Source: an uncultured virus (IMG/VR IMGVR_UViG_3300031853_000024)
Taxonomy: Duplodnaviria > Heunggongvirae > Uroviricota > Caudoviricetes > Schitoviridae
Virus record (IMG/VR): IMGVR_UViG_3300031853_000024
Length of the DNA stretch: 64,000 nucleotides
Direction: 5' to 3' (one strand)
This document shows positions 15,201-62,624 of the stretch, one piece after another. Each line of letters starts with the position of its first letter. The stretch's first letter is position 1. Both the position numbers and the translations under genes were made by a program. The notes under the pieces were generated by a model, which was not told the DNA's origin, did no database searches, and was given only the letters and a program-made list of their open reading frames with translations.

Positions 15201-18200
15201 TCAGGAGTTTTCTCATTGGTAAATGCATCAATGATTTGTCTATTAGCTATAGTATCACCATCAGCAAAATCACTCATTTGATAATTATCTACAAAAGTAT
15301 TAAATACTTTCTGTAATTCCTGTCTTTCTCTAGGTGAAGCATGTCTCCAAACAGTATGAGCATATTCATGTCTGAATGATTCTGTTTGTGATTCACCTCT
15401 ATTAGCTCTACCTAAAGTAATTTGTTCTCTAACAGCTATACCTGTTGTATTATCTCTAAGTAATGCTACTTGAGAATCACCTATAGTATTAGAATTTTCT
15501 TTTACATAGAGAGCAATAGGAGTAGAGGATTTAACCATTAAATCATCTAACCAACCTAAATCATTATCAGCAGTATCTACACCTCTACTTGCATCAGATT
15601 GTTTACAAATATCTAATGCACCTCTAAATGCTACTTCACCATTAAGCATTTCACCTGCCTGTTCATTAACAGTATTAGCATTAGAGTAACCTCTCATATT
15701 ACGTACAGCAGATGTATTAAGACTTTGAGTATATTCTTTATTCTTTACATGTTTAATACGTGTAAACGTAGATAATGCAGCATTAATTGCACTTGATATA
15801 CCATGCATAATACCATTTCTAGCTTCCTTAACATCTTTAGTTAATTCAGATGCAGTATGTTGATTTAAACCATTAAGAACAAAGGTATTATAGTTAAAGT
15901 CTGTATCAGGAAGTATATATTCACCTTCTACTGGTTTAGAATGAACAAAAGTAAATGTATCTACACCATCAAGTGATAACTCACTCTGAATAGCTCTCAT
16001 ACAGCAGGCATTAAAGGTATTAAGATTTGTATCATAGTTATTAATTTCTAAGATATTTTCATTAAGTAAATATCTAGGAATAGGTATTCTCTTACTACCT
16101 GTATCTGCAGAATCACTAGCATTACGCTTAATGAAATTAAATGTATCACTAGCATCTCTTATGGCTGAACGATTTAACCATTGAGCCAAAGAAGAACCAA
16201 TAACTACTTCTTCTGCATATGTTCTATTACCTCTCTGTTTAGTTTGAATAGCATCAAACAATTCTGACTTAGTAACAGATGAATCTACAGTTACTTGGAA
16301 TACAAAGTGTCTAGTAACACCTGTAGAGTCTGTAACTTTAATTACTCTTGGTTTAATGTAATCTTTCCATGTAATATCACCTCTCATGTATTTAGCATAA
16401 TCAGCTCTCATAGAAGATTGAACCTGATATAAAGAGTTCTTTACATCTTCTAAATCCAAGAGTTTAAGATTATTAGCTACAGGAGAGCCGTCAGCACATA
16501 GATTAATAACCAGAGCTCTATTATCATTAGATACATCATTCGTTCTATCATAAGCTAATACAGATTTTAAATCTCCATCTTTAATTGAATAAGTATTAAG
16601 ATTAAGTACATTTGTTGGTTTAAAACCAGCAGAAACAATACTATTTAACTCTTCTTCAGAAGCATTTACATATTCAGATAAATCAATATCCTGTAAACTT
16701 CTATTACGAATACCATGAGTACTAAGAGCTATTTCAGGTAATACTGCATCATCTTGAGTAGATGTTTTCTTTAATTCACCTATTTCATCAGTAAAATTAA
16801 TTACATATTTATCAGCTTTAGTTTTAGCACGTTCAATAGTAGTACTTTCACCATTAAAATTTACTATATTTACTTTAGCATTATTATCAGGAATACGAGA
16901 TATAATTGCATTTTCAGATATAGTTTTATCTGTAATAGCTTCAATTAAAGAATTATTAGATAGAGCTGTAGGAGCTTTATTATAAGTAACTTCTTTTAAG
17001 TTCTCACCTAATAAAATTCTTAATTGGTCATAGATATTAACTTCTTTATCTACTCTAGGAGCATTATCTGTTTTATCTGTAATAGCAGGTACTACAACAA
17101 TAGTAGCTTGAGGTATCTCACCCTTTGAAATAAGATACTGTAAACCATGCATACGAAGTACATCAGTTTTAGACCTAAGAGTAAATACAATCTGAGAACC
17201 AGCCTCTATATTAGAATATCTATTCTTTAATGGAGTAGTTACATTATCAGTAAACCATCTAGCTGTAGCTGTAGTTAAATCCTTATAAGAAGCATTAACT
17301 TCTTTCATCTCATCAGAAGATGCATTATATTTATTAACCTTGGATTCTATATAAGACCAAGTATCATCTAAATTAAGATTATCACTATAGTCTATATAGG
17401 TTGGTTTACTTGTATCTAAGTTCTGTGGAGCAACATTATAAACATTAATTAAACCAAGATTAGAAATAATGTTATTAAATGCTAGTTGCTGCTCATGACT
17501 TACTTTATTATTTAAAGCTATGCCTACGGCATCTTGTGCTATAGATAATATATCCATAGGTGTAATTACTGCTTGAGCAAATACATTCTTATTTGCCATA
17601 ACAGCTTTATATACACACTCACGTACATAATCATCTTTATCATGTAGAGATACATTATTTATTTTTTGAGTAAAGTAATGAACAAGATTAAATATAGAAG
17701 TAACTGCAGCAGCTCTATTAGATGTACTATTTTTTAAAGCATTTTTTACAGCATTAGCATCTATAGTATCTTTACTAGCTGCTTTTACTGCATCTCTTAT
17801 AGATAAATCTTTTAATACATCTTTTTCTCTATAACCACGAATAATTGCAATAGCAGCTTTACGTAATGTTCTTCTATATTCTAATGCTTGTTCTCTATTA
17901 GTAGTCATACTTTTAACAATATTATCAATAGTAGACTTAATATCAGTACCAATAAATTCAGTTTTTAATTTACCATTTTTATCTAATAAATTAAATTTAT
18001 AGCCATCTCTTACTCCTGCTAATAGTGAAACCAAGCTGAACTCACTATCAGTATTATTTAAACCATCAATAAATACCTGTAGTCCATAAGAACTATTATC
18101 AGAAGTTTTAATGAGATTATTGTATTGATCAATCTCAGCCTTTAAATCTTCTTTAGTAGGTGTATAAGCTGAATCTTCATCTAAACTAAACTGATTGATA

Positions 18201-30322: not shown

Positions 30323-31177
30323 TTAATGTAATAATTCCCAAGCTTTATTAGCCCAATAACTTGATGCACCTGTCATTTTATCTAATGCAGTACCAAGACC
30401 ATATCCTGCTAATCCTGCACCTGTAACAGCTCCACCAATACCTGCACCAACACCTAATCCTGCTAATGCACCTGAACCTGATAAAGCACCCATAGCAGAG
30501 CCTACGGCTCCTGCTGTACCTGCACTAGTTGCTATATCACTAGCTACATTTGATAAGTTGTAAGGTTTGTCACCATTACCATATTGAGCTAAATTAGCAG
30601 CTTCACCTACTAAACCTAAACCACCTAAAGCTTTACGTAAATAAGGATTATTAAATGCATTAATAGCCTTATTTCTAATGCTGTTTTCTTCAGCTAATCT
30701 ATTTGCTTTAGCTTGGTTTAATGCCGATTGAGATTGCTTAACATTCTCATCATTAGCTGCTCTCATAGCTTCTAATGCAGATGCTCTAGCTAATCTTGAT
30801 TTCTCATTATTATTTAGACTGTTAAAATCTATACCTTCAGCTAATGTATATCCAGGTGATACTAAACCAAAAGAATTAACATATGGTTTAACTGTAGCTG
30901 CACTAGTTACAATAGGGTATCTAACTCTAGTAGGAGTAAATAAACCTTCACTATAAGTTACAGGTATTTTAGATTGTAAATAGCCTCTATCTACAAGAGG
31001 TTTTAAATTCTTGTTATATTCGAGGTCTACTTTACCTGCTTGTCTTTGAGCTTTTAAGTTATTTAATCTAGCTTGGTTTTCAGCATTAATATAGTTAGCT
31101 AAATATCTATTTGTAACATTTCTATCTAATGCTAAATCACCAAGGTCACTAATAGAATAATTATTATTATCTGCCAT
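30323..31177 (-). CDS. putative ejection protein with Gly/Ala-rich membrane-inserting C-terminus
   Basis: GAVGSAMGALSGSGALAGLGVGAGIGGAVTGAGLAGYGLG glycine-zipper. Confidence 0.6.
   Translation of the reverse strand: MADNNNYSISDLGDLALDRNVTNRYLANYINAENQARLNNLKAQRQAGKVDLEYNKNLKPLVDRGYLQSKIPVTYSEGLFTPTRVRYPIVTSAATVKPYVNSFGLVSPGYTLAEGIDFNSLNNNEKSRLARASALEAMRAANDENVKQSQSALNQAKANRLAEENSIRNKAINAFNNPYLRKALGGLGLVGEAANLAQYGNGDKPYNLSNVASDIATSAGTAGAVGSAMGALSGSGALAGLGVGAGIGGAVTGAGLAGYGLGTALDKMTGASSYWANKAWELLH
30498..30510 (+). promoter_or_regulatory. TAC-loop hairpin element inside a late gene
   Basis: GAGCC-TAC-GGCTC. Confidence 0.55.
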
Positions 31178-38340: not shown

Positions 38341-40673
38341 TATTTTTTGGTTCCTTTCTTATTTTGAGATTGTTTAGTCTTTTCCTGCTCAATCATATAA
38401 TCCATGAATTTTTCCTGCATAGATTTATCTGCTTGAGCTTTAGCCTGTTGAGCCATAAGTTCCATATCCTGCTTATGCTTAGTACCCTGAATATCATTGA
38501 GATAATCAAGATTAAGTTTCTGAGCCATAGACTGATTGTATTGAGCTTTAGCTTGTTCAGACTGAATCTTACTAAGTAACTCTTGTGGTCTAAGCTGCAT
38601 ATCAAGTTGAGTACCATATATTTCACTTTGAGCTTTAGCATTAGACAACTGAGTATCAGCTTCAGATTTACCTGCTTCTGCATGTAATTTTTCAATCTGA
38701 GCCTGTAATAATTCAATCTGCATTTCCTGCAGTTTTTGCTGCATTGGATCAGGAGGTGGAGGAGTAAATCTTCTTACTCTTTCAGCTAATTCAGGCATTT
38801 TACGTAAATCACAAATCTCAGATAAAATCATCTGAGTCATTTCTTGATTAACAGTATTACCTAATGTCTGTAACATAAATGCTAATGATTCAGCTTTAGC
38901 TTGATTTTCTTCAGCACTAGTAATAGCCAACTCTAAATCAAAATTACCAGCTAAATCATCTCTATGTATTTCTACAAAGTCTTGGTTTGTAATACGAATA
39001 ATTTCACTGTCATTAAGCCAAAGAGCATTCATAGCTATAATCTTTCTAGCTACTTTCTTTATACCATCAGCTAATCTTCTAAGAATACCTAATTCTCTCT
39101 TAGTAGCTGAATCCAATACAGATTTAACACCTTGAGCTGTATTACCTAATGAATCACCTGTAATACCCTGATTATAGGATTTAACACCTGTTAATGACTC
39201 TGCTTCCATTTCCTGCGATTGTAAGAATGGAAGAATAGTCTGAGGTATTTCAGGGAATGTATGTTGGAAGATACCCTGTTGAGGTGTCATAGTAGGATTA
39301 AATTCATAATCCCTGCCTTCTGTAAATGCTTTCTTATTTACAGGGTCTAAGAACTGCATAGCTGTACCTGTTTGAGAGTTAGCACTCTTAGCTAATAAAT
39401 CTATAACACCTCTAGTTACAGCACCTATAATAGCTTGGTTATCAGCGATTAACACACCATCAGGTTCACCATATATTTCATGAATAGCAGGTAAATAAGG
39501 TACTACTACAAATGGTGGTTTATGATCAGGGAATGGATTTTCCTCTAGCCTAATCATAATATCACCAACCCAAGTAGCAACAATAGGAACTTTAACACCA
39601 TTATTGTTAATATCCCAATTACCCCAATATTCATATACAGTTAATTTTCTTCTAGCTGAATCCTTAAAGTTATCACTAAAAGAATCATCAATATCTCTAG
39701 TTGCTGTATCAGGGATTAATTCTACATTCACATATCTACCATCTTGTAATAAATCTGATTTACATGAAGTAAATCTATAAATAAAGTATTCAGCTTTATC
39801 TACATCGCCTTCACAAGATGGATCTATATAAATGTCTTTGTAATAACATAAATCAAGAGTAGGTCTGTTTATTACTTTGGTTTGTCTTTCATAAACAGTG
39901 CCTACTTGAACAGGTTCATAGGCTATTGGAGGGAGAGATTGAATATATTGTTGAGCCTGTTCAAGTAACTGTTGTTGCATCTGTTGCAGTTGTTCTTCAG
40001 CCATACCTGACTGTTTATACTGTTCTAACTGCATCTGAATATTAGCAAATACCTGCTGTTGTCTTTGCTGTTCTTCCTGATTAGCTAATTCAATACACTG
40101 AATCCACTGTTCAGGAATATTACCAATATTGATTGAGTCTTGATAGAGTTTTTTAACTCTCTCAAATCTATTGACCCCTACGGGGTCTTCAGGGTTAATA
40201 GGTTTAGGTTGATACTGTGGTTTAGGAACATCAAGATAATCTTCTTTTTCTTCCCAACCAACTCTGATTATTGAAGTACCTGTATTAACAGCACTACGAA
40301 TATAATCATCAATAAACTTAACCTTGTTAATTTGGGTATTGAACTGATGATTTAGGACTAATTCATTCTGTTTTGCTGCATAGCTATCTTCATATGTTAC
40401 AGGATTAACTTTGAAGATATTGTTTTCAGCTAAGAATGGTTCTGTAAGAGCAGAGTAACGCCACTCAGCCTGCTTACGTATTAACTTGGATTGGACTGTG
40501 CTACGAGTTTTGCCTCTCTTGTGGTCATAAGGTATAGGGTCAGCTTTATACTTAACCAAGTAGTCATCAATTAGAGCTTCCTGTTTGTCATGACTTGATT
40601 TACAATTTACATAGTCATCTTTCAAGTCAGCAACGGTAGGCTCATTAGCCCAATTAGTTAGTTTATAGTCCAT
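38340..40673 (-). CDS. portal protein (N4 gp59-like)
   Basis: LTNWANEPT, KLIRKQAEWRYSALTEPFL, RLEENPFPD.KPPFVVVPYLP, LAGNFDL. Confidence 0.95.
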   Translation of the reverse strand: MDYKLTNWANEPTVADLKDDYVNCKSSHDKQEALIDDYLVKYKADPIPYDHKRGKTRSTVQSKLIRKQAEWRYSALTEPFLAENNIFKVNPVTYEDSYAAKQNELVLNHQFNTQINKVKFIDDYIRSAVNTGTSIIRVGWEEKEDYLDVPKPQYQPKPINPEDPVGVNRFERVKKLYQDSINIGNIPEQWIQCIELANQEEQQRQQQVFANIQMQLEQYKQSGMAEEQLQQMQQQLLEQAQQYIQSLPPIAYEPVQVGTVYERQTKVINRPTLDLCYYKDIYIDPSCEGDVDKAEYFIYRFTSCKSDLLQDGRYVNVELIPDTATRDIDDSFSDNFKDSARRKLTVYEYWGNWDINNNGVKVPIVATWVGDIMIRLEENPFPDHKPPFVVVPYLPAIHEIYGEPDGVLIADNQAIIGAVTRGVIDLLAKSANSQTGTAMQFLDPVNKKAFTEGRDYEFNPTMTPQQGIFQHTFPEIPQTILPFLQSQEMEAESLTGVKSYNQGITGDSLGNTAQGVKSVLDSATKRELGILRRLADGIKKVARKIIAMNALWLNDSEIIRITNQDFVEIHRDDLAGNFDLELAITSAEENQAKAESLAFMLQTLGNTVNQEMTQMILSEICDLRKMPELAERVRRFTPPPPDPMQQKLQEMQIELLQAQIEKLHAEAGKSEADTQLSNAKAQSEIYGTQLDMQLRPQELLSKIQSEQAKAQYNQSMAQKLNLDYLNDIQGTKHKQDMELMAQQAKAQADKSMQEKFMDYMIEQEKTKQSQNKKGTKK
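40173..40187 (+). promoter_or_regulatory. TAC-loop hairpin element inside portal gene
   Basis: GACCCC-TAC-GGGGTC. Confidence 0.6.
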
Positions 40674-42528: not shown

Positions 42529-42539
42529 GGAGAAAAAAA

Positions 42540-42785
42540 ATGACTAATAGCATAGATAATATAAATCCTACTCATTATACATATGGTAAATATGAATGCA
42601 TTGATGTTATTCAGGATATTACAAAAGATTTAAAGGGTGAAGAAGCATTTTGTATTGGTAATGCTATTAAATACATTTGGAGGTTTAAACATAAAAACGG
42701 TGTAGAAGATTTAACTAAAGCCAAATGGTATTTAGATAGAATTATCAATAAAGATGTTGAAAATAAATTAAAAGAATTAGCATAG
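42540..42785 (+). CDS. DUF3310 / T7 gp1.7-like nucleotide kinase family protein
   Basis: DNINPTHY..G..ECID...FCIGNAIKYIWR..HKNGVEDL.KA.WYL signature. Confidence 0.85.
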   Translation: MTNSIDNINPTHYTYGKYECIDVIQDITKDLKGEEAFCIGNAIKYIWRFKHKNGVEDLTKAKWYLDRIINKDVENKLKELA

Positions 42786-42808
42786 TTTATTTTTTACAAA
42801 GTGTTATG

Positions 42809-42834
42809 AGGGCTAGGTAATACTAGCCTTTTTT
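42809..42834 (+). terminator. intrinsic terminator
   Basis: GGCTAG-GTAATA-CTAGCC plus T6. Confidence 0.8.
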
Positions 42835-42849
42835 GTCCCCTACGGGGAC
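42835..42849 (+). promoter_or_regulatory. TAC-loop hairpin, candidate vRNAP promoter
   Basis: GTCCCC-TAC-GGGGAC directly after a terminator and before a gene cluster. Confidence 0.7.
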
Positions 42850-42888
42850 TATTGGGTTTTTTTAACTTTTTTTAATAGAGGGAAGAGA

Positions 42889-43137
42889 ATGACTAATTTA
42901 GAATTTAATAAGAAAGCTGATGCTTTGAGAGAATCACCAGAAACAAAAGAAGATTTTGTATGCGATCTAATCACAGAAAATAATCTGTATGATTTCATTT
43001 TATATGAGATGTTCAAAGGAGATTCAGAGAAAATGAATGAGGCTCTCGTAGACTACTATTCTGATGATTATGAAAAATACTGTGAAAGTATTATTTTAAC
43101 TTGGTTTGAGGGAGAAGATGACGATGATTTTGAATAG
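42889..43137 (+). CDS. hypothetical acidic protein
   Basis: 82 aa, strongly D/E-rich, GAGGG SD. Confidence 0.7.
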   Translation: MTNLEFNKKADALRESPETKEDFVCDLITENNLYDFILYEMFKGDSEKMNEALVDYYSDDYEKYCESIILTWFEGEDDDDFE

Positions 43138-43393
43138 ACCTGTAATAGAGACTGTAAATAGTGATATTAAATACTTCAGAAAAAAATTAAATAGTTATAT
43201 ATCTCATAGAATTAAATTAAATAAAGAGGTTAAGGAGTTAAAAGCTAATAAAACAGCAGAAAATATTGATCTAATTTATAAGAGAATGACTGAAATAGAT
43301 AGTTTAACTAAAACTATTGCTAGATGGGAAAGAATACTAAATTATCTAGTTTCTTATGCTGAAAGCATAAAAAATGAAGGTTCTAAAAAATGA
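43118..43393 (+). CDS. hypothetical coiled-coil protein
   Basis: ORF overlapping upstream gene; start at 43118 or 43124. Confidence 0.6.
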   Translation: MTMILNRPVIETVNSDIKYFRKKLNSYISHRIKLNKEVKELKANKTAENIDLIYKRMTEIDSLTKTIARWERILNYLVSYAESIKNEGSKK

Positions 43394-43563
43394 TTATACC
43401 TGATAAAACCATAAATCAGTTAATAAAAATTTTATATAAAAAGCTAGAATCTACAACAGATAGAGATACTATAAGTACTTTAGCAAGTATTATATGGTAT
43501 CTAGAAGATCACCAAAAATTAATGAATAGAATTAATAAATTGGAAGAAAAACTTAATAAGTAA
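43390..43563 (+). CDS. hypothetical protein (57 aa, not in ORF track)
   Basis: MIIPDKTINQ...KLNK*; ATGA coupling; fills the gap. Confidence 0.6.
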   Translation: MIIPDKTINQLIKILYKKLESTTDRDTISTLASIIWYLEDHQKLMNRINKLEEKLNK

Positions 43564-43584
43564 ATTTATATAGGAGTATTAATC

Positions 43585-44013
43585 ATGAATTTAGTTGAAG
43601 CAAATGACATTAATCACAATAATCGTTTAAATTTAATTGGTAAGGGTAATATTGCAAAAGATTATTACAATGAAAATCGCAGACAGTTTGAAGCTTACGG
43701 AAAAAATGAAAATGGTGATTATTTCATAGTTTATGCTATACCTGATTTTACAGGTTGGGCTGATAAACATTTAAGAATTAAATTAGAAATTCTAACAGAA
43801 GATGGATTTAAAGAGTATGAAATTGAATATGATCCTTATGGTGATAAATATGAACATTGGCTTGTAAATAATAGACATACCTTAGATTTCTGCTCTTTGG
43901 CTTACTTTAAACTAGAAGAAAAATTCGAAGATCCATTAACAGAAATATTAAAGGAAACTCTTAAAAAATCTTACGGTTTTAATGATTATGGTGAAAAAAT
44001 ATTTGAGGAGTAA
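43585..44013 (+). CDS. hypothetical protein
   Basis: 142 aa, TAGGAG SD. Confidence 0.75.
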   Translation: MNLVEANDINHNNRLNLIGKGNIAKDYYNENRRQFEAYGKNENGDYFIVYAIPDFTGWADKHLRIKLEILTEDGFKEYEIEYDPYGDKYEHWLVNNRHTLDFCSLAYFKLEEKFEDPLTEILKETLKKSYGFNDYGEKIFEE

Positions 44014-44017
44014 AATA

Positions 44018-44353
44018 ATGGGTTATTACTGTGATGCATATGCTGTTGTAGATAAACCAACAATAAAGAAATTAAAGCCTTTATTAGAAGGTATTACAGA
44101 TAATGTAACAATTGTTGATGATAATAGGTATTACTTAACTTTTACTATGAAAGTATGTGATAGATTCGATGAAATTCAAGATACTATTAAATCAAGTTCC
44201 TATTATGAATTAATAACAATAGGGGAAGAAATTACTGATATAGAATATGAGTCCAGTGGAGAATGTGAATATTATTTAGAACTTACAAGAGAGGCTTATT
44301 ATGTAGCTTCTCCATCATTTGAAATTAAAAATATAGGATTAGAAGAATGTTAA
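44018..44353 (+). CDS. hypothetical phage protein (paralog of 54917..55237)
   Basis: GAGGAG SD; MGYYCD...IGEEITDIE pattern. Confidence 0.7.
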   Translation: MGYYCDAYAVVDKPTIKKLKPLLEGITDNVTIVDDNRYYLTFTMKVCDRFDEIQDTIKSSSYYELITIGEEITDIEYESSGECEYYLELTREAYYVASPSFEIKNIGLEEC

Positions 44354-44613
44354 AATCTATACCACAAGAAAGTTTAATAGTTAAAGGATTTGATATGGAA
44401 TACCCTGTATATGGGAATAATTTATTAACTATAGTATACAGTAATTCTAAGAAAACATTTTCATTACGAATTAAAATATTAGATAAAAATCAGGTACTAG
44501 TATCTGATAATTATCCTAATAACGTAAGAACCCCAATTAACAAAGTAAGAAAGAATCTTAAAGCTTACTTTAAAGCATTTGGGTATAAAACTTTATATAG
44601 TAACCATGCTTGA
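44347..44613 (+). CDS. hypothetical protein
   Basis: 88-aa ORF overlapping upstream stop. Confidence 0.6.
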   Translation: MLKSIPQESLIVKGFDMEYPVYGNNLLTIVYSNSKKTFSLRIKILDKNQVLVSDNYPNNVRTPINKVRKNLKAYFKAFGYKTLYSNHA

Positions 44614-44654
44614 CATAATAAATTCTTTTTAATTTTAATGTGATCTCTATCACA
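44610..44654 (+). promoter_or_regulatory. sigma70-like promoter with overlapping CRP-like box
   Basis: TTGACA-N18-TTTAAT, then TGTGA-TCTCTA-TCACA (44639-44654). Confidence 0.6.
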
Positions 44655-44668
44655 TAGGAGAAATTAAA

Positions 44669-44803
44669 ATGTTTTGGTTTACTATCATTAATTTTGGCTT
44701 ATTGATATTTCTTAATATAGAACCAGATTATAAACTAATTTGGTTTATAGCATTATGGCTATTAACTGTAATTAAAATTAATAAGGATATTAAAAACATA
44801 TGA
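44669..44803 (+). CDS. small membrane protein (44 aa, not in ORF track)
   Basis: AGGAG SD; MFWFTIINFGLLIFL...LIWFIALWLLTVI; ATGA-coupled to the next gene. Confidence 0.6.
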   Translation: MFWFTIINFGLLIFLNIEPDYKLIWFIALWLLTVIKINKDIKNI

Positions 44804-45399: not shown

Positions 45400-45616
45400 A
45401 TATAACAGCTATAGTAATTAATAAACTACCAGATAATTTAAATGAGGCTAGTATATAATCATATATTCTAGCCTCTATTTTATTTAAAGGATTAAATTCT
45501 AAACCAAAGTAAATAGTATTAGTTAATTCATTTGCATAGAGTATATTAATACAACCCCCAATTAAAAAGGAGGTAATAAGTAATATATTAATTAATATTA
45601 ATACTTTCTTCTTCAT
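45362..45616 (-). CDS. small two-TM membrane protein
   Basis: MKKK followed by two hydrophobic helices; own minus-strand promoter upstream. Confidence 0.55.
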   Translation of the reverse strand: MKKKVLILINILLITSFLIGGCINILYANELTNTIYFGLEFNPLNKIEARIYDYILASFKLSGSLLITIAVIFIFSGLKHHKTL

Positions 45617-45688
45617 ATTAATTTATTAAACCGTATTAATTAATAATATATAAATTAAGGTTAGCTTTTTTGTGTGCTAGCACACGCA

Positions 45689-45717
45689 AGTGTAATATCA
45701 AAATTAAAAACTGTCAA
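45689..45717 (-). promoter_or_regulatory. sigma70-like promoter
   Basis: TTGACA-N17-TACACT. Confidence 0.6.
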
Positions 45718-45739
45718 GTAAAAAATCATTTAGAAAAAA

Positions 45740-45800
45740 TTTAATATTTTGTATAGAAGCAAAAAGTCATACCTGAAATTTTTAATATTTTGTATAGAAG
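45740..45800. repeat. 20-bp direct repeat
   Basis: TTTAATATTTTGTATAGAAG at 45740-45759 and 45781-45800. Confidence 0.85.
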
Positions 45801-45856
45801 TAGATTAACAGAGGGTAAAAAAATTAATTAGGGGGAGTCCCCCCCCCCTATGACCC

Positions 45857-45870
45857 TACAATGCGATGGT
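45857..45870 (+). promoter_or_regulatory. conserved early-region motif TACAATGCGATGGT (copy 1)
   Basis: identical copies at 46924 and 49418, variant at 46217. Confidence 0.65.
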
Positions 45871-46923: not shown

Positions 46924-46937
46924 TACAATGCGATGGT
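46924..46937 (+). promoter_or_regulatory. conserved early-region motif TACAATGCGATGGT (copy 2)
   Basis: exact repeat upstream of the RNAP II genes. Confidence 0.65.
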
Positions 46938-46999: not shown

Positions 47000-47014
47000 A
47001 GCACCTACGGTGCT
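47000..47014 (+). promoter_or_regulatory. TAC-loop hairpin, candidate vRNAP promoter
   Basis: AGCACC-TAC-GGTGCT, about 40 nt before the RNAP II subunit 1 start. Confidence 0.7.
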
Positions 47015-47052: not shown

Positions 47053-47985
47053 ATGATTGATTTGCAAGAAATATGTAAAATCTTTGGTTCTAATTTAAGA
47101 GCAAAAGTAAATAAGAAACTTGACACTAAGCTTACTACATTAAAAAGCAAGGTCAAGAAAAATGGTCAACCATATTCTACTGAATGGGTTGAAGACCTTA
47201 TAAAGCTTAGTGATAATGTTAACTATACACACATAGCTATGAATATTCTTAACTGTTTAAGGGGGACAGATAAGGAACATGGCAAGACCATTCATCAAAT
47301 GGTTGGATATGTTTTACCAAGAGAAATATCACAATACCATACTAACAGGTTTGGTCAGTGGGTATCAATAGTGCTCACTGCCATAATGGATAGTAACTTG
47401 CTTATTGAAGGCGATACACTTGTAACTATTAAACAAGTCCAATGTGCAGACGGTACGATGGTAAAAAAGATTATCAAAACAAGAACCTTTTATCTAAATC
47501 TTAAAGCATTACATAATGCAGATTTAGGTGAAGTTACTGCATTGATTAAAAAACCAAATTCTAAGGCTCATAGAACTAATAGAGTCCTAGGTTCTATTTG
47601 GGTTAAGGACTCAACAAAGCTAAATCATAATAAACAGATTATAGATTTAGTAAATGGAGTGGCTCTTACCTTTAACCAAGAGATATTAGCCAAGCTCAAT
47701 TATGAGTTCCCATTGGACGAACCAAATCCAGATGATTGGGACTCAGCAAAGTTTGCCAATTATGAAGACTGGGTTGCTGATAGAGAAGAGCAGCACAGAG
47801 GATATATTGGCAAGTTACCTGAAGCTATTAGAGAGATGGGTGATGAAGTATTTTATAACACCTATGCTCCAGATAGCAGAGGAAGGTTGTACCCTACGAA
47901 TGACGCAGGTAATTTCGTAGGAATAAAATATATTAGGTCAATAGTGCAATTTGCTGATGATTGCATTGTTGATGTCAATGAATAA
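47053..47985 (+). CDS. RNA polymerase II subunit 1 (N4 gp15-like)
   Basis: DSRGRLY (DxRGRxY) motif near the C-terminus; AAGGAG SD before ATG 47053; precedes subunit 2. Confidence 0.85.
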   Translation: MIDLQEICKIFGSNLRAKVNKKLDTKLTTLKSKVKKNGQPYSTEWVEDLIKLSDNVNYTHIAMNILNCLRGTDKEHGKTIHQMVGYVLPREISQYHTNRFGQWVSIVLTAIMDSNLLIEGDTLVTIKQVQCADGTMVKKIIKTRTFYLNLKALHNADLGEVTALIKKPNSKAHRTNRVLGSIWVKDSTKLNHNKQIIDLVNGVALTFNQEILAKLNYEFPLDEPNPDDWDSAKFANYEDWVADREEQHRGYIGKLPEAIREMGDEVFYNTYAPDSRGRLYPTNDAGNFVGIKYIRSIVQFADDCIVDVNE

Positions 47986-48055
47986 TATCAGCATTTAAAT
48001 GGTAGAGCTGTGTACAATACATGGCTCTTTTTTATTAATAAATATAGGAGTTATC

Positions 48056-49324
48056 ATGGAATATTTTTCAGCTTATAATTACGTTCTTTCTCAGGTAGGT
48101 GCATACTGCTTGGGATTAGACAAAGAGTCATTTCAGACTCGTATTGAAAAAGTCAAAAAATATGGTTTCCAATACTGTTTGGAACAAGCAAATAAAATCA
48201 AGAAAGCAAGTGAAAGAGCACTTGCATACCAATCCTTACAAATGTGGTTTGAGGTGACACATAAAGGCAGAACCGCACTGCCAATATTCTTAGATTGGTG
48301 CTCATCAGGTATCAGTCTTATTAGTGCATTAACCAGATGTGTTATTGGTATGAAATCTTGCGGTGTATTCAATATTGCATCAGCAGGAAACTTTTATAAG
48401 TTAATAGCAGATGAGCTTAATGCAGAACTTAGTACTGATTTTACAAGAAGTACCTGTAAACCATTTACTATCCCTTTCTATTATGGAGGGGATAAGAATG
48501 TGAAGGACGCTCTAGGTGAAAACGCTGAAACATTTCACAAGATTTATAAAAAACTCGTACCAGGAGGATATGAGTTTAGAACCAAAACAATAGAATCTTG
48601 GAATGAGAAAGCATATTATTATACTTGGACTCTGCCTAATGGGTATGAGGTTGAGATACCTGTATTACAAGACCCAGTGCTACAAACAGTAGAAGTTGGG
48701 GAAGAAATAAGCTTAAAATGCTCATTTAAGCTACAGGGACCAAGACCTACATACTTGGAAGGTAGAAATGGTGAACTCTATCGCAATAATCATACTAAGG
48801 GTAATGGTGCAAACATTATCCATAGTGTTGATGGATTTGTGTTAGAGGAAATGCATGGTATGGCTCATATGCCTAAAACCAGAGCATTTGAAATACTCTA
48901 TAAAAGCACTATTACGAGTGAAAGCACTGAATTTGGTGATAGATTTAATGCTTGGGATAACCCTGAACTTGCAAGGATATTCCAGGCTTGGAAAGACACC
49001 AATTATCCAAGTGTAATGTGGTTCTATTTGCTAGCTGACTGTGAAGGTATTCAATTACCACCTGAGTTGTATTCACAATTAGTACAATTAGCTAATAGAT
49101 TGCCTGAAGAAGAATTTAACATTATCTCTATACATGATGAATTTGGTTGCTTGCCAACTCATGTAAATGATATGCGCAAAAATGCTAACACCATTTATGC
49201 AAATATCTATAGAAGTAACATGTTAGATTATTTTAATAAAGTATTTAAAATGGATATAACAGTAAATCCATTTAATCAGGACATATATGACAAATTATTG
49301 GAGGTAGATTACTTACTGTCTTGA
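48056..49324 (+). CDS. RNA polymerase II subunit 2 (N4 gp16-like)
   Basis: GLDK..F..RI, motif A LDWCSSG, motif B RSTCK....FYYG, ANIIHSVDG, motif C IHDEF. Confidence 0.92.
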   Translation: MEYFSAYNYVLSQVGAYCLGLDKESFQTRIEKVKKYGFQYCLEQANKIKKASERALAYQSLQMWFEVTHKGRTALPIFLDWCSSGISLISALTRCVIGMKSCGVFNIASAGNFYKLIADELNAELSTDFTRSTCKPFTIPFYYGGDKNVKDALGENAETFHKIYKKLVPGGYEFRTKTIESWNEKAYYYTWTLPNGYEVEIPVLQDPVLQTVEVGEEISLKCSFKLQGPRPTYLEGRNGELYRNNHTKGNGANIIHSVDGFVLEEMHGMAHMPKTRAFEILYKSTITSESTEFGDRFNAWDNPELARIFQAWKDTNYPSVMWFYLLADCEGIQLPPELYSQLVQLANRLPEEEFNIISIHDEFGCLPTHVNDMRKNANTIYANIYRSNMLDYFNKVFKMDITVNPFNQDIYDKLLEVDYLLS

Positions 49325-49397: not shown

Positions 49398-49431
49398 GCA
49401 CCTATGGTGCTAAAGAGTACAATGCGATGGT
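49398..49431 (+). promoter_or_regulatory. hairpin variant (TAT loop) adjacent to TACAATGCGATGGT copy 3
   Basis: GCACC-TAT-GGTGC (49398-49410) and motif at 49418-49431. Confidence 0.6.
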
Positions 49432-50097: not shown

Positions 50098-50112
50098 AGC
50101 CCCTACGGGGCT
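50098..50112 (+). promoter_or_regulatory. TAC-loop hairpin, candidate vRNAP promoter
   Basis: AGCCCC-TAC-GGGGCT. Confidence 0.7.
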
Positions 50113-50115: not shown

Positions 50116-50189
50116 TGATTACTTTGAGTAATCCAATTTGTGTTCCATAAATATAAATGTAAAGCTAGTCAGAAATGGCTAGCTTTTTT
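50116..50189 (+). ncRNA. candidate ~75-nt small RNA
   Basis: lies between a hairpin element and terminator AAAGCTAGTC-AGAAAT-GGCTAGCTTT(T); 5' GATTAC/GTAATC stem; no SD-led ORF. Confidence 0.45.
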
Positions 50190-50285
50190 GTTTTAAAGAC
50201 AATTTAAGTATGGGTAATACATTGGTATTACTTAGTATCAAAACGTGCGTAGAAGAGCCTTAAAACGCAAGGAATGAGGTGTTAT

Positions 50286-50466: not shown

Positions 50467-50682
50467 ATGATGATAAACTCCGTAGTTAAGGGAATCATTT
50501 TTGGTTCCCTTTTTTTATTAATTTGGGGAATTGTTATTTATTTAATTTTACGTGCTTTAGATACACCTGAAGTAGAGTTCAGTTGGTCTACAAAACAGTG
50601 TGTAAGAGTTGTTTACATGGATGGTAAGACAACTAATTGTGATGTCTTACCTGATAGATATGATATTGTATGGGGAAAATAA
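50467..50682 (+). CDS. small membrane protein
   Basis: N-terminal TM, then PEV.FSWSTKQCVRV...C..LP..Y..VW. Confidence 0.7.
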   Translation: MMINSVVKGIIFGSLFLLIWGIVIYLILRALDTPEVEFSWSTKQCVRVVYMDGKTTNCDVLPDRYDIVWGK

Positions 50683-50683
50683 A

Positions 50684-51121
50684 ATGGAATTTAAAGATGA
50701 ATATTGGTTTTTAAACAATATGTGTGAAACACCAATCACATATAAAGATTTAACTTACAGAAATGTAGAAGCAGCTTTTCAAGCTCAGAAATGTCCTGAT
50801 AGAGCTGAAGAATTTGTTAACCTCAAAGGATTTGAGGCTAGAAAACTAGGTAGAAAGATAAAACCTAGAAAAGATTGGAATGATGTAAAAGAATCTATCA
50901 TGTTAGAACTCTTAGAGATTAAATTCTCTAGAAGAAAATATAAAAAGAAATTATTAAGAACAGAAGATGAAGAGATTATCTATGACAATAATTGGAAAGA
51001 CACTTTTTGGGGTAGATATGATGGTGAAGGTGAAAATGTATTAGGCAAACTTATAATGAGCATAAGAGACGAATTACAGAATAGTAAATTAGCTCCTACG
51101 GAGCCTAAGGATATTATTTAA
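50684..51121 (+). CDS. NADAR (YbiA-like) family protein
   Basis: FL.N....PI......Y..VEAAFQAQK, ARKLGR, DW..VK..IM...L..KF, W.DTFWG, GEN.LG.LIM.IR. Confidence 0.9.
   Translation: MEFKDEYWFLNNMCETPITYKDLTYRNVEAAFQAQKCPDRAEEFVNLKGFEARKLGRKIKPRKDWNDVKESIMLELLEIKFSRRKYKKKLLRTEDEEIIYDNNWKDTFWGRYDGEGENVLGKLIMSIRDELQNSKLAPTEPKDII
51092..51104 (+). promoter_or_regulatory. TAC-loop hairpin at the 3' end of the NADAR gene
   Basis: GCTCC-TAC-GGAGC followed by CTAAGG. Confidence 0.65.
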
Positions 51122-51134: not shown

Positions 51135-51257
51135 ATGTATAGTTTTGAATATGCTTACACAAAGTTAGGTTTAGATTTTTATAAAGTATTTTTAAATGGT
51201 GAATTTATTGGAGAGTTCACTTATGAAGATTGTGTAGAAGATTTTGATATGGAGTAA
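51135..51257 (+). CDS. hypothetical protein (40 aa, not in ORF track)
   Basis: AAGGAG SD; MYSFEYAYTK...DFDME*. Confidence 0.6.
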   Translation: MYSFEYAYTKLGLDFYKVFLNGEFIGEFTYEDCVEDFDME

Positions 51258-51264: not shown

Positions 51265-52287
51265 ATGCTTATTAAGAATTTAGTTAAGAGTGTTGAAGTA
51301 GCAATTAAGAGTGGTGTAGTTCCATTTATTCAGGGTTCACCAGGAATCGGTAAATCAGATATTGTTAAGCAAGTAGCTAATAAATATAAGTTAAAGCTTA
51401 TTGATATCAGATTGAGTCAGTGTGACCCAACTGACTTATGTGGACTACCAAAACTTAATGGTAATAAGGCAGAGTTCCTGCCATTTGATACATTTCCTGT
51501 AGAAGGAGATGAAATACCAAGTGGCTATAAAGGTTGGCTCATCTTTTTAGATGAAATTAATAGTGCAAGTAAAGCTGTACAGGCTGCAGCATATAAATTA
51601 GTACTTGATAAGATGGTAGGCAACCATCATTTACATAAGAATGTACTGATTGCATGTGCAGGTAATAAAGAGACTGATGGTGCTATTACTAATCAGATTA
51701 GTACAGCTTTAAGGTCAAGATTTGTAACATTAAAAGTAGAACCAGACTATGAATCTTGGTTGGATTGGGCTAATGATAATGATATTGATTGGAGAATAAT
51801 TTCATTTATCAATTATCAAAAGATGAATGGCTTATATGATTTTGACCCTGAAAGAACAGATGTAGCTTATGCATGTCCTAGATCATGGGAAATGGTGAGT
51901 AAGTTACTGAAGAACATAGATAACTTAAATGATTATGGTGAATTATTAGAAGGTACTGTAGGTGGTCAAGCTTACATATTCATTAACTTCTGCGAATGTA
52001 TAGGTGAAATGCCAACTATTGAACAGATATTTGGTGGAGTAGCTACAGTTAAGCATAACTTGGATTTAGGTAAGAGATACTTATATACAGGTTTTGTTAT
52101 TAACAATGCTAATTTAATAAATACGCAGGAGAAAGCCAAACATGTAACAGAATACTTAGAGGCATTAGGTAGAGATTTTGCTGTAATATTCTATTCAACA
52201 GCAATTAGAAAGAATCCTAAATTATTAAGTATGTCTGCTATTCAAAAGAAAGTAACGGAGTATGCAATATGGTTGACGAAAGAATAA
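51265..52287 (+). CDS. MoxR-like AAA+ ATPase (N4 gp24-like)
   Basis: GSPGIGKS, IDIRLSQ.DP.DL.G.P, IFLDEIN, AGN, ALRSRF, CPRSW. Confidence 0.92.
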   Translation: MLIKNLVKSVEVAIKSGVVPFIQGSPGIGKSDIVKQVANKYKLKLIDIRLSQCDPTDLCGLPKLNGNKAEFLPFDTFPVEGDEIPSGYKGWLIFLDEINSASKAVQAAAYKLVLDKMVGNHHLHKNVLIACAGNKETDGAITNQISTALRSRFVTLKVEPDYESWLDWANDNDIDWRIISFINYQKMNGLYDFDPERTDVAYACPRSWEMVSKLLKNIDNLNDYGELLEGTVGGQAYIFINFCECIGEMPTIEQIFGGVATVKHNLDLGKRYLYTGFVINNANLINTQEKAKHVTEYLEALGRDFAVIFYSTAIRKNPKLLSMSAIQKKVTEYAIWLTKE

Positions 52288-54183: not shown

Positions 54184-54216
54184 AAAAGCTCTCAGTAATG
54201 GGAGCTTTTATTTTTT
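54184..54216 (+). terminator. intrinsic terminator
   Basis: AAAAGCTCTCA-GTAA-TGGGAGCTTTT plus T run. Confidence 0.8.
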
Positions 54217-54220
54217 AGGG

Positions 54221-54233
54221 GTCCCTACGGGAC
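54221..54233 (+). promoter_or_regulatory. TAC-loop hairpin, candidate vRNAP promoter
   Basis: GTCCC-TAC-GGGAC followed by TTAATGG, directly after a terminator. Confidence 0.7.
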
Positions 54234-55237: not shown

Positions 55238-55264
55238 AATTAACTCCTATATTACATGCTAACC

Positions 55265-55294
55265 AAAGCCCTAGTAATAGGGCTTTTTATTTTT
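55265..55294 (+). terminator. intrinsic terminator
   Basis: AAAGCCCTA-GTAA-TAGGGCTTT plus T run. Confidence 0.8.
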
Positions 55295-55306
55295 AAGGAT
55301 ATTATT

Positions 55307-55639: not shown

Positions 55640-55675
55640 AGTTCAGAAATTTATTATAGATTATGGAGTATTAAC

Positions 55676-56772: not shown

Positions 56773-56974
56773 ATTAATTGCTAGGTTACAGCAACTAGTT
56801 AATACTGAACCAGATTTAAGCGAAGTAGATATTAAATTAGAGACTGAACCAACATATAAGAACTCAATAGAGTCAGATATAGATAATGTATGGATACATG
56901 AATGGTATGACTCTAAAACCAAGAAAAAATATAAGACTGTAATACTAGTGGAGAAACGAGATGATAATTCCTGA
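56759..56974 (+). CDS. hypothetical protein
   Basis: MKVNELIARLQ start common in phage small ORFs. Confidence 0.65.
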   Translation: MKVNELIARLQQLVNTEPDLSEVDIKLETEPTYKNSIESDIDNVWIHEWYDSKTKKKYKTVILVEKRDDNS

Positions 56975-57209
56975 ATATATTATTGTAATGACTTGGATTT
57001 TAGTAGCTATAGTTATCTTATCAATAATTGCAGCCATTCTCTTTAGATTATATATACTGTTCTTATTTAATGAAAAAGAAGAATTAAGAAATAAAGCATA
57101 TGATATTCAAAATCAGATTTACTTTGCTAAAAATGAGTTAAATGACCTTAAAAAAGAAATAGAAACTCTTAGAAAAGAAAAGAATTTATGGGAAAATAAA
57201 AATGCATAA
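56961..57209 (+). CDS. membrane-anchored coiled-coil protein
   Basis: N-terminal TM followed by heptads. Confidence 0.65.
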   Translation: MIIPEYIIVMTWILVAIVILSIIAAILFRLYILFLFNEKEELRNKAYDIQNQIYFAKNELNDLKKEIETLRKEKNLWENKNA

Positions 57210-57423
57210 AATTCAAAGATTAGGCTTTACTAAAATAGGTGATGGTAGAGGTACTGCTTTACTAGAACCTATCCATACAACAAATCCAAAAGGTAATGAT
57301 ATAGTGTATTTACCTGTATTTAAAAATAAAAAAGTAGATTTTATAAAAATAAACTCAAAGCAAGATTTATTTGTTTGGTTTAGACTAGCATTTCCTAATG
57401 CTGTAATGCCTAAAGAAGAATAG
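57202..57423 (+). CDS. hypothetical protein
   Basis: 73 aa, overlapping chain. Confidence 0.6.
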   Translation: MHKIQRLGFTKIGDGRGTALLEPIHTTNPKGNDIVYLPVFKNKKVDFIKINSKQDLFVWFRLAFPNAVMPKEE

Positions 57424-57478
57424 TATTATTTATTTTTGGTTTAATTTATAAAGTATTAAACACCCCTATATATTGTTT

Positions 57479-57517
57479 CACTCGATAGTTATAACTGACT
57501 ACCGAGTGTTTTTTTTT
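57479..57517 (+). terminator. intrinsic terminator
   Basis: CACTCG...CGAGTG plus T9. Confidence 0.7.
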
Positions 57518-57530
57518 GCCCCTACGGGGC
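57518..57530 (+). promoter_or_regulatory. TAC-loop hairpin, candidate promoter of the replication operon
   Basis: GCCCC-TAC-GGGGC directly after a terminator, 30 nt before the helicase ATG. Confidence 0.7.
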
Positions 57531-57559
57531 GTAAGAGAATTTTTTATAGGAGCTAATTT

Positions 57560-58726
57560 ATGTTAACCAAGTCACAACAAATTGCTATTGATGAAATTAA
57601 AGAATTTATTAAGAATGATATGACTGTACATTGTTTATCAGGTTCACCAGGTACAGGTAAATCATATTTGATTGAGACAGAAATCCCCAAGTTATTAAGA
57701 AATACCCCATATTTTTTAGTAACAACAGCTACAACTAATAAGGCTGCAGCAGTTATTCATGGAGTAACTTTATGCAAAGCTTTTGGTATTAGCCTGAAAG
57801 CTGATATGGACACAGGAGTACAGGATTATAATCTCAGCAGATTAAAGACTATGCTTAATCAATTCATCATCATAGATGAGGCATCTATGTTAGATGGTAA
57901 ATTATGGCAAATAGTTCAAGAATCCAGTGTTAACTGCAAGTTTTTATTAGTAGGTGATAAATACCAGTTACCACCTGTCAAAAGCACATTTAATCCTTTT
58001 AGTGAATATCCTATTAGTGAATTAACAGAAGTAGTAAGACAGAAAGACCCTGATTTTTTAAATGAAATTAAACAGGCAAAGCAGGGTGTAATAGACTCTG
58101 AAGTATATAAACCAAAAGAGAATAAGTGCATTCACTATCTTAAAACAAATAAGGAAGTGAGAGATTTATTAGCTAGTTTTACTAATGAAGACAAAGCATT
58201 AGCTTATACTAATGATAAATCAGTTGATTTAGCTTATACCATTCGTAAATTACAGAACAAAAGTACTGATTTCTGTATTGGTGATCCTGTAGCACCAAAG
58301 AATTATTGTGAAGATAGTCAAGGTTGTTCAGTACAGACAGGAGAGGATTTAATAGTATCTGCAATAGGTAAGAAACAGAATATCAAAATTGATACATATG
58401 ATATTGAAGTAAGACCATTCAATTTTATTGGTACTAGTGGAACATTCTTGGTTCCAACTAATTATAAATATGCTCTCATTGTAGCTAAAGAAATGGCTAA
58501 GAAAAAGAAATGGAGAGAATATTACAGAATTAAAGAAGGTTTATTAGATTTAAGATTTAATGAGGCTAGTACTATTCATTGTTCGCAAGGTAGTACATAT
58601 AACAGAGTATTCATTCATATGACCGATTTGCTTACCTGTAAAGCATACAGCACTAAAGCTAGACTGCTATATGTAGCTTTATCCAGAGCCAAGAATGATG
58701 TGTATATTTATGAGGGAGACAGATAA
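57560..58726 (+). CDS. SF1B Dda/RecD-like DNA helicase (N4 gp37-like)
   Basis: GSPGTGKS, ATTNKAA, IIDEASM, VGD.YQLPPV, VVRQ, TIH.SQGST, YVALSRA. Confidence 0.93.
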   Translation: MLTKSQQIAIDEIKEFIKNDMTVHCLSGSPGTGKSYLIETEIPKLLRNTPYFLVTTATTNKAAAVIHGVTLCKAFGISLKADMDTGVQDYNLSRLKTMLNQFIIIDEASMLDGKLWQIVQESSVNCKFLLVGDKYQLPPVKSTFNPFSEYPISELTEVVRQKDPDFLNEIKQAKQGVIDSEVYKPKENKCIHYLKTNKEVRDLLASFTNEDKALAYTNDKSVDLAYTIRKLQNKSTDFCIGDPVAPKNYCEDSQGCSVQTGEDLIVSAIGKKQNIKIDTYDIEVRPFNFIGTSGTFLVPTNYKYALIVAKEMAKKKKWREYYRIKEGLLDLRFNEASTIHCSQGSTYNRVFIHMTDLLTCKAYSTKARLLYVALSRAKNDVYIYEGDR

Positions 58727-59130
58727 TGAAAGAGTACCAATTATGGTTTTTTAATATGCTGCAAAACAAGCAGCAGGATATTATCCACACTATGTATAAA
58801 GATTTTGATGAAAGATTATATACATGGCAGGCTTATCATAATAATATATTTGATATGCCTGAAATACTTAAACATATACAACAAGTATTAGAAGAGTGGA
58901 AGAATAAATTTCTAACTAAATCATCGGTATTCTTTACTGATGAAACGCCAGAGGCAGCATTAAATAAACATTTAGAATATTTAGATATATTTCTTGAAGG
59001 AATAAAAAATCAAAAAGAAGTTGAATTATCAGAAGATTTAAAAGAAGTATTTAACGAAGCTCTAGGAATAAAACTAGAGCTTTCTTTTTGTTTACCTTCA
59101 AGAGAGGATATATTAAATGGTAGTGTGTAA
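58726..59130 (+). CDS. hypothetical protein (gp38 position)
   Basis: 134 aa between helicase and DNA polymerase. Confidence 0.65.
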   Translation: MKEYQLWFFNMLQNKQQDIIHTMYKDFDERLYTWQAYHNNIFDMPEILKHIQQVLEEWKNKFLTKSSVFFTDETPEAALNKHLEYLDIFLEGIKNQKEVELSEDLKEVFNEALGIKLELSFCLPSREDILNGSV

Positions 59131-61666: not shown

Positions 61667-62624
61667 TTTAGGTATAGATAATATTATTGCTACTTGGCTT
61701 GCTAGTAATTCTTACAGCGGTAAGAAACAGGGTAAATGCATATCTGCTACTACACTGTTAAGAAGTACGCAGCAACAGGTATTAGGTTATCGTTGTATGA
61801 ATAGTGATGATTATGTAGAACAGGTAGATATAAGTACATTACTTAAATCTCAAATAGGTACTGCTCTACATAAATCTATTCAAGATACATGGGAATCTAA
61901 AGGATTAAGAGAAAATGGATTACTTAATCTAGGTGTTTCACCTGAAAAGATAGCTAAGATTTGTGTTAATCCTGAGAATCCAAGTCCTGATAAATATAAT
62001 CTATTCTTTGAAAAAAGAGTAGAGAAAGAATTTAAAGGTTGGACTATTACAGGTCAATTTGATTTGGTTTGTAATGGTAATTTACATGATTTTAAATCTA
62101 CTAGTACTTATACTTATGTAAATAAAACCAAAGAGAAAGATTATATCTTACAGGGTAGTATTTATAGATGGTTAAATCCTGAATTAATTACAGGTGAGTT
62201 TATTACCATTCATTATATATTTACTGATTGGAATAAAAACTATACACTAAGTAATCCTGACTACCCTAAGTGTCCTTTTGTAAGTGTTAAATTACCTTTA
62301 ATGAGTATTACTGAAATTGAGACATTTATGAGTAATAAGATTATGGGTATTGAGGCTTATCTTGAAGAAGAGAATCTACCTGAATGTGATGCTAAAACAT
62401 TAATGATAGATGAGGTATGGCAATACTTTAGTTCTAATACTGCCCTACGGGCAAGCAAGAACTTTGATAGTCTTATTGAGGCTAATGCTTATTTACTATC
62501 TAAAGGTGGTAAAGGAGTAGTTAAAAAGAAAGCTTCTGAACCTAAGGGCTGCAGCTATTGTAACTGTAGAAATGTATGTAAGCAGTATAAACGATTTGTT
62601 AGTGAAGGTTTAATTAAGGAGTAA
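61647..62624 (+). CDS. PD-(D/E)XK exonuclease, Cas4-like (N4 gp42-like)
   Basis: ISATTLL, IGTALH, EKR, GQFD, HDFKSTS, QGSIYRWL, C-terminal C.YC...VC.Q. Confidence 0.88.
   Translation: MRRITNDLGIDNIIATWLASNSYSGKKQGKCISATTLLRSTQQQVLGYRCMNSDDYVEQVDISTLLKSQIGTALHKSIQDTWESKGLRENGLLNLGVSPEKIAKICVNPENPSPDKYNLFFEKRVEKEFKGWTITGQFDLVCNGNLHDFKSTSTYTYVNKTKEKDYILQGSIYRWLNPELITGEFITIHYIFTDWNKNYTLSNPDYPKCPFVSVKLPLMSITEIETFMSNKIMGIEAYLEEENLPECDAKTLMIDEVWQYFSSNTALRASKNFDSLIEANAYLLSKGGKGVVKKKASEPKGCSYCNCRNVCKQYKRFVSEGLIKE
62441..62453 (+). promoter_or_regulatory. TAC-loop hairpin inside the exonuclease gene, upstream of primase
   Basis: TGCCC-TAC-GGGCA. Confidence 0.6.

Follow-up and report, generated by a model that had tools for sequence, protein, structure and literature searches.

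What is the function of a small DNA hairpin that recurs ten times in a phage genome and faces the same way at every site? The question is raised by the window, a whole stretch of 64,000 nucleotides from an uncultured virus (IMG/VR record IMGVR_UViG_3300031853_000024), in which the core CCTACGG lies between flanks that vary from site to site and remain paired. We consider it likely that these CC-TAC-GG elements are N4-type single-stranded-DNA hairpin promoters, read by a T7-like RNA polymerase that the phage encodes. The template (−) strand of each copy would extrude a C-GTA-G mini-hairpin with a stem of 5 to 6 bp, the polymerase would bind this hairpin, and rightward RNA synthesis would start at a G about 12 nt past the loop centre. 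The observed properties that carry this reading are anatomy, strand polarity, selection for pairing, and placement before genes.

A one-way family of triloop hairpins

The preliminary description of this DNA had listed ten sites with their stems and had claimed that all face the same way. A search of both strands returned every site and stem as given, with CCTACGG present ten times on the + strand and absent from the − strand, compared with a mean of 0.44 (maximum, 3) in 100 dinucleotide shuffles. All ten copies form perfect triloop hairpins, with stems of 6 bp in four copies and 5 bp in the other six (Table 1). The codon-shuffled control that had been proposed was also carried out: five copies lie within genes, whereas 300 codon shuffles yielded 0.41 on average and never more than 3. 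A TAT-loop variant was found at 49398-49410, where it had been reported.

The family stands out among other hairpins of the window. Of the 154 perfect triloop hairpins with a stem of at least 5 bp, 10 belong to C-TAC-G, more than to any other class (the runner-up has 6). When stems of at least 4 bp were counted, C-TAC-G hairpins numbered 10 forward and 0 reverse, and 200 shuffles gave means of 0.165 forward (maximum, 1) and 0.24 reverse (maximum, 2). CTACG 5-mers were then considered, a test that applies no selection on structure. On the + strand (n = 29), ten had a stem of at least 5 bp and none a stem of 3 to 4 bp; on the − strand (n = 13), none had a stem of 3 bp or more. No additional C-closed TAC member was found on either strand with one mismatch allowed in the six flanking pairs, and no second hairpin class was found in the window. 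Three other + strand CC-NNN-GG triloop hairpins occur in late genes, at 14877 (TTC), 37841 (TGT), and 37919 (TGT), and may be due to chance.

Table 1. Hairpin copies and candidate polymerase genes of the window
Feature	Coordinates	Strand	Context or match	Position of G after the hairpin
Virion RNA polymerase (vRNAP) gene, giant, 4883 aa	12248..26899	−	phrog_2206, E 1.6e-126	
ATGCC-TAC-GGCAT	17520..17532	+	antisense within vRNAP gene; − strand codons D-A-V-G-I	+12 = 17538
GAGCC-TAC-GGCTC	30498..30510	+	antisense within late gene 30323-31177	+12 = 30516
GACCCC-TAC-GGGGTC	40173..40187	+	antisense, 5' part of portal gene	+12 to +14
GTCCCC-TAC-GGGGAC	42835..42849	+	intergenic, directly past terminator	
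AGCACC-TAC-GGTGCT	47000..47014	+	loop centre 46 nt before RNAPII small-subunit start 47053	
RNAPII small-subunit gene	47053-47985	+	phrog_2166, E 4.4e-05	
RNAPII large-subunit gene	47999-49324	+	phrog_2051, E 1.2e-63	
GCACC-TAT-GGTGC (variant)	49398..49410	+	intergenic, 61 nt before ATG 49465	
AGCCCC-TAC-GGGGCT	50098..50112	+	intergenic	+12 = 50117
GCTCC-TAC-GGAGC	51092..51104	+	last codons of gene 50609-51121	
GTCCC-TAC-GGGAC	54221..54233	+	intergenic, directly past terminator 54184-54209; upstream of DprA-like gene	
GCCCC-TAC-GGGGC	57518..57530	+	intergenic, directly past terminator	+11 and +13
TGCCC-TAC-GGGCA	62441..62453	+	within exonuclease gene, peptide T-A-L-R-A	

Anatomy and placement

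Copies are referred to below by loop centre. Read on the template (−) strand, ten of the eleven copies present C-GTA-G, and the 49404 variant presents C-ATA-G. For all eleven template-strand 25-mers the minimum-energy fold is the triloop hairpin (−3.5 to −7.0 kcal/mol), as calculated by nearest-neighbour folding that does not model the extra stability of GNA triloops. GNA-triloop DNA mini-hairpins of the d(GCGNAGC) type are a structural class and not a functional family, and the C-GTA-G of the window is a member of this motif. The 5- to 6-bp stems of all eleven copies lie within the 5 to 7 bp that characterize N4-type promoters. An A/T spacer and then a G follow each hairpin; counted from the loop centre, this G is at +12 in nine of the ten TAC copies (all but 57524); A is enriched at +9, +10, and +11 (23, 22, and 19 of 39 sites). 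The anatomy of N4 promoters that had been ascribed to these sites, with template C-GNA-G triloops on short stems, an A/T spacer, and then a G, is thus borne out.

Non-coding DNA makes up approximately 7% of the window and holds six of the eleven copies. Six copies (42842, 47007, 49404, 51098, 54227, and 57524) stand nearest to a start codon, with the loop centre 36 to 61 nt ahead of it; five of these are intergenic and 51098 is within a gene. Three copies (42842, 54227, and 57524) start 1 to 6 nt past a terminator-like hairpin and U run, as had been noted, and the NTAA that was said to follow most intergenic copies occurs after the 5-bp stem in five of six, 42842 being the exception. Of the eleven copies, three precede RNAPII by no more than 10 kb in the + strand block; six, including the TAT variant, lie downstream of it, with four TAC copies at 10 kb or less and 62447 beyond. 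The remaining two are deep in late genes.

The genes that follow the hairpins are varied. The 40173..40187 hairpin is followed, 562 nt downstream, by the first + strand gene (dUTPase, 40742), and the 42842 loop centre is 47 nt before the ATG at 42889 that opens a block of small ORFans. The 51098 loop centre is 37 nt before the ATG at 51135, with the ATPase gene next, at 51265; that of 57524 is 36 nt before the ATG of a Dda-like helicase gene at 57560; and the 62447 copy precedes the primase start (62626) by 179 nt.

Conservation and selection for pairing

Conservation was examined in an IMG/VR contig of 66,875 nt (G001), whose RNAPII is 52% identical to that of the window, and in close relatives (L087 to L090; 92% identical), in which four sites are kept. 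G001 carries 18 forward and 2 reverse C-TAC-G hairpins, against approximately 0.2 expected; four of its hairpins are antisense in its late genes. At the position corresponding to −8, its 18 forward copies have G ten times, C seven times, and A once. The 47007 copy is conserved in L087, L088, L090, and G001 (6053), and the 51098 copy is syntenic in L087 (7107) and G001 (10604). The TAT site at 49404 reads TAC in L087 and L089 and is evidently a point variant derived from a TAC site.

Across 10 syntenic groups, 75 stem-pair comparisons were made, of which 55 were unchanged, 18 compensatory, 0 one-sided, and 2 broken. The 17520 copy is syntenic with G001 50707 and differs by one compensatory pair, and the portal copy is kept at G001 82 as GATGCC/GGCATC, with two compensatory pairs; both copies, in the portal and vRNAP genes, keep their pairing through coding changes. 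The exonuclease copy at G001 22976 encodes the same TALRA peptide with four synonymous differences, which make up two compensatory pairs. At the sequence level, these comparisons show that the pairing of the hairpin is under selection.

In GC-rich relatives, the 7-mer SCTACGS has no discriminating power. The 14-mer GCACCTACGGTGCT was matched in at least 124 stretches of viral contigs; these were taken as chance matches, since the clade's second motif was present in 0 of the 77 loci screened from them (L101 to L177).

The phage and its two candidate polymerases

By gene content, the window belongs to a divergent N4-like (Schitoviridae) phage. Leftward genes run from 40673 to 1 and include the terminase, a 4883-aa open reading frame, the major capsid protein, and the portal, and rightward genes run from 40742 to 64000 in the window. 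PHROG matches comprise an N4-type set of terminase, capsid, portal, RNAPII large subunit, ATPase, HNH-like protein, Dda-like helicase, DNA polymerase, exonuclease, and primase. The capsid protein is less than 60% identical to each of 481 matching phage records, which belong to N4-like phages of Vibrio, Pseudomonas, Escherichia, and others, and megablast of 12 kb of the window gave no DNA-level match to phage records. The GC content of the window is approximately 30%. Sequencing runs annotated as bovine gut metagenome contain the window or close relatives. No Rfam family or tRNA was detected in the window.

vRNAP and RNAPII are the two candidate readers of the hairpins (Table 1). The identification of RNAPII is also backed by PF00940. 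The vRNAP of the window contains T7-like motifs A, B, and C near residues 2396, 2513, and 2787; a PDB sequence search with the giant protein and its polymerase region returned 0 hits at E ≤ 10. This protein has 4883 aa in the window, 4917 in G001, 4459 in a second schitovirus (G002; 46% GC), 3500 in N4, and 3403 in LUZ7. T7-like motif A was located at residue 2402 in the window and at 1555 in N4. It is thus set back by approximately 850 residues in the window, and a large share of the additional length lies upstream of the polymerase domain.

Residues that contact the promoter in N4 vRNAP were compared by a five-sequence MAFFT alignment, which is gapped and of low identity in this region. In this alignment, N4 W129 is matched by Y in LUZ7, W in G002, I in the window, and M in G001; D901 by G, G, T, and T in the same order; and R904 by R, K, R, and S. 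G002 has both the W and a T-centred loop in its hairpins, and no conclusion is drawn from this comparison.

Explanations for the hairpin family

That the family arose by chance or as a by-product of coding, for example of Ala-Val-Gly codons on the − strand, is extremely improbable. The three late-gene copies do encode A-V-G, but ten hairpins are observed against 0.17 to 0.44 expected, codon shuffles reach at most 3 against the five coding copies, and none lies on the − strand, although most genes are there. Compensatory changes that are synonymous also speak against a coding origin. The hairpins could instead be replication signals, as one-strand priming sites or origins, possibly primed by a phage RNA polymerase, with polarity reflecting fork direction. 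Their orientation is indeed constant whatever the direction of the genes, including at the three late-gene copies, of which those in the portal and vRNAP genes are conserved in G001. Such a role would not predict the tight placement 36 to 61 nt before start codons and just past terminators, nor the N4 promoter spacing with G at +12, and a literature search found no paper that links N4 hairpins to origins; we regard it as very unlikely.

An equally slim chance is given to a signal at the RNA level, in which a + strand C-UAC-G stem-loop would act in processing, stability, or termination. Compensatory changes by themselves fit RNA as well as DNA, and either strand, and T-rich runs follow two of the copies. 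RNA helices, however, usually tolerate G-U shifts, and 0 of the 20 changed pairs (of 75) kept pairing by the one-sided change that such a shift would leave. GNA is a stable type of loop, and the conserved hairpin loop reads GNA only on the − strand. Most copies also have no U run, and those near terminators are positioned after them and do not replace them.

Several points weigh against the promoter reading itself. Where N4 has a purine at the loop centre (−11) and G at −8, the window has T at −11 in all eleven copies and C at −8 in all ten TAC copies. The hairpins are spread well beyond the left-end early region where N4-type promoters are located; a review holds that hairpin promoters must lie at the left end and that the approximately four vRNAP copies per virion are too few for many promoters (PMC4496689). 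Three copies have no nearby sense gene, and a strong terminator lies within approximately 60 nt past the 50105 copy. The runs considered as RNA evidence, two metatranscriptomes and two further runs, consist of assembled contigs, from which neither starts nor strand nor level can be read; contig ends near 40204 are also present in a DNA run and give no support either way for transcription starts. Finally, the enzyme is assigned by analogy.

Which polymerase would read the hairpins

From the properties described above we infer transcription from the hairpins and the enzyme that would carry it out. The copies at 40180, 42842, and 47007 are most likely read by injected vRNAP, like N4 P1 to P3. For the copies before middle and replication genes, the choice is nearly even, with RNAPII acting on the same hairpin, alone or together with vRNAP, slightly preferred to vRNAP alone. 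Consistent with vRNAP as the reader are the N4-type anatomy and the presence of the motif at the head of the RNAPII operon itself. In favour of RNAPII at the middle copies are the small number of vRNAP molecules and the middle hairpin promoters of LUZ7, which have been attributed to RNAPII (PMC9163698). By analogy with these systems, we lean slightly toward a promoter common to both enzymes.

It is possible, but on balance unlikely, that vRNAP alone, injected and later newly made, reads all copies while RNAPII uses other promoters. One invariant hairpin class is present everywhere, and the operon that it heads is one that RNAPII cannot switch on by itself. N4 RNAPII promoters are described as short and AT-rich (PMC4496689) and would hence be invisible in DNA of 30% GC. 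The limited supply of vRNAP and the LUZ7 assignment argue against vRNAP alone, as does its activity, which is reportedly dampened after early transcription. RNAPII is, moreover, conserved in the clade and so must have targets.

From the late-gene copies, rightward transcription would cross the late block in antisense; Watson-strand transcription through late genes has likewise been reported for LUZ7 and LIT1 (PMC9163698). It is attractive to regard these co-oriented copies, by analogy with N4, as putative restart points for genome internalization, because N4 genome entry depends on transcription (PMC4496689). More tentatively, one hairpin class, shared by vRNAP and RNAPII or read by vRNAP throughout, might run the whole pre-late programme, with the late-gene copies as rightward restart points. 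If so, transcription from these restarts would draw the remaining genome into the cell, or shut off late genes through antisense RNA, or do both, and one signal would replace the two-promoter relay of N4.

N4 is the textbook three-polymerase relay, with hairpin promoters that are early only and restricted to the left end. The same hairpin before replication genes, together with conserved antisense copies in the portal and vRNAP genes, challenges this restriction. The hairpins also offer a concrete sequence basis for the unexplained antisense late-gene transcription of the Watson strand in LUZ7 and LIT1. Natural variants of the putative promoter (T at −11; C or G at −8) provide a defined set for work on vRNAP and RNAPII specificity. 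In annotation, these hairpins should not be labelled terminators.

Other elements near the hairpins

The 42539-44687 region contains approximately 1.8 to 2.1 kb of small ORFans that are skipped in contigs of other runs and that seem to form an accessory block, variable between strains, right after the 42842 hairpin. Past the 50105 hairpin, approximately 75 nt of the + strand (50117-50196) fold into three stem-loops (−23.1 kcal/mol; z, −4.7), and this structured stretch is closed by the intrinsic terminator at 50161-50186. L087 keeps its first hairpin and the terminator. The stretch is a candidate small RNA or leader.

A second motif, TACAATGCGATGG, occurs in three exact + strand copies in early-region intergenic DNA (45857-45869, 46924-46936, and 49418-49430), one of which starts 14 nt past the centre of the 49404 hairpin. 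It is conserved in G001 and L087 to L090, and in G001 an inverted pair of TACAATGCGATGG flanks the palindrome ctagtctaggctagac. TACAATGCGATGG may be a second regulatory motif, with a promoter, an operator, or an element of the 5' untranslated region as candidates. The AT-rich intergenic region at 45400-45860 (461 nt) contains aatattttgtatagaag twice as a direct repeat, and the G/C-run hairpin at its end (45829-45850) scores as a terminator on the − strand; this region may be near a physical genome end.

Comparison with N4, LUZ7, and other Schitoviridae

The N4 record contains exactly three forward GC-T[T/C]C-GC hairpins, at 96, 565, and 4554, each followed by TT(T/A)TGG with the G at +11. The hairpins of the window resemble these promoters (P1 to P3) in the template-strand stem of 5 to 7 bp, the 3-nt loop with 5' G and 3' A closed by C:G, the A/T spacer, and a G approximately 11 to 12 nt from the loop centre, which in the window is a candidate start predicted from sequence. 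The third N4 hairpin is 49 nt before gp15 (RNAPII small subunit), compared with 46 nt before the homologue in the window and 48 nt in G001, and the 47007 copy is the positional counterpart of N4 P3. In N4, extrusion requires the closing C:G pair with the 5' G and 3' A of the loop, which form a sheared G:A pair, and vRNAP recognizes −11A/G, −10G, −8G, and +1C, with W129 and R119 contacting the purine at −11 (PMC4496689). The window keeps the closing pair, the loop 5' G and 3' A, −10G, and likely +1C; it differs from N4 in the T at the loop centre and the C at −8. Unlike N4 with its three copies, the window has 10 to 11 in 64 kb, some of them ahead of middle and replication genes and others antisense in late genes. 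A lone AGTTAC-TAC-GTAACT hairpin is antisense in N4's own vRNAP gene (40154 of the N4 record).

The loop has a parallel in LUZ7. The LUZ7 record carries C-TAC-G hairpins at 797, 3669, and 3701, with both G and C represented at −8. The latter two, spaced by 32 nt, immediately precede gp14 (Drc) and have a G at +12/+13 and +13/+14, respectively. ONT-cappable-seq of LUZ7 identified nine early transcription start sites, mostly at hairpins, with the early start at a G 13 to 14 nt from the hairpin centre and with two tandem early promoters for Drc whose starts are 33 nt apart (PMC9163698). Spacing and position suggest that the 3669 and 3701 hairpins are these tandem Drc promoters. The middle promoters of LUZ7 are reported to be GC-rich hairpins too, with a stem of at least 6 bp and a loop of 3 to 4 nt, located approximately 15 nt upstream of a G start (PMC9163698). 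Compared with this form, only the four longer TAC stems of the window reach 6 bp, the other six having 5 bp, and its G lies at +12 to +14. LUZ7 has exactly four forward C-TCC-G hairpins with a stem of at least 6 bp, at 8245, 9529, 35259, and 66585, which probably correspond to the published middle promoters. The hairpin at 66585 (6 bp, C-TCC-G) is antisense in the late gene gp85; it and the N4 hairpin at 40154 may be counterparts of the late-gene copies of the window.

A central T in the loop had been proposed to reflect an altered specificity of vRNAP. This proposal is not supported, as the same loop is found at the LUZ7 Drc early hairpins and at eight early hairpins of G002; a purine centre therefore marks N4 itself and not the family. 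Among 58 IMG/VR Schitoviridae loci around RNAPII, surveyed for forward C-TNC-G hairpins with a stem of at least 5 bp, the loop is lineage specific (TTC, TCC, TGC, or TAC). The survey counted 106 hairpins upstream of RNAPII and 13 downstream, two of the 13 belonging to G001; the reverse-strand background was 13 upstream and 15 downstream in similar amounts of DNA. Forward C-TNC-G hairpins are thus usual in other Schitoviridae and lie mostly in the early region, as do the eight C-TAC-G hairpins of G002, all at 2.0 to 5.2 kb. Sites before middle and replication genes, as had been described for the window, and sites within late genes are real and, given the 106 to 13 distribution, unusual for the family.

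Overall, the window is like LUZ7 in its C-TAC-G hairpins, in exceeding the three early hairpin promoters of N4, and, as predicted from its late-gene copies, in rightward transcription across late genes, which in LUZ7 belongs to early and middle transcription of the Watson strand. LUZ7 apparently uses two loop classes, TAC/TTC at the left end and TCC further right, whereas the window has one class throughout. Neither the mechanism nor the loop variant, which the LUZ7 sequence also carries, is new; what is new is the genome-wide spread of a single class.

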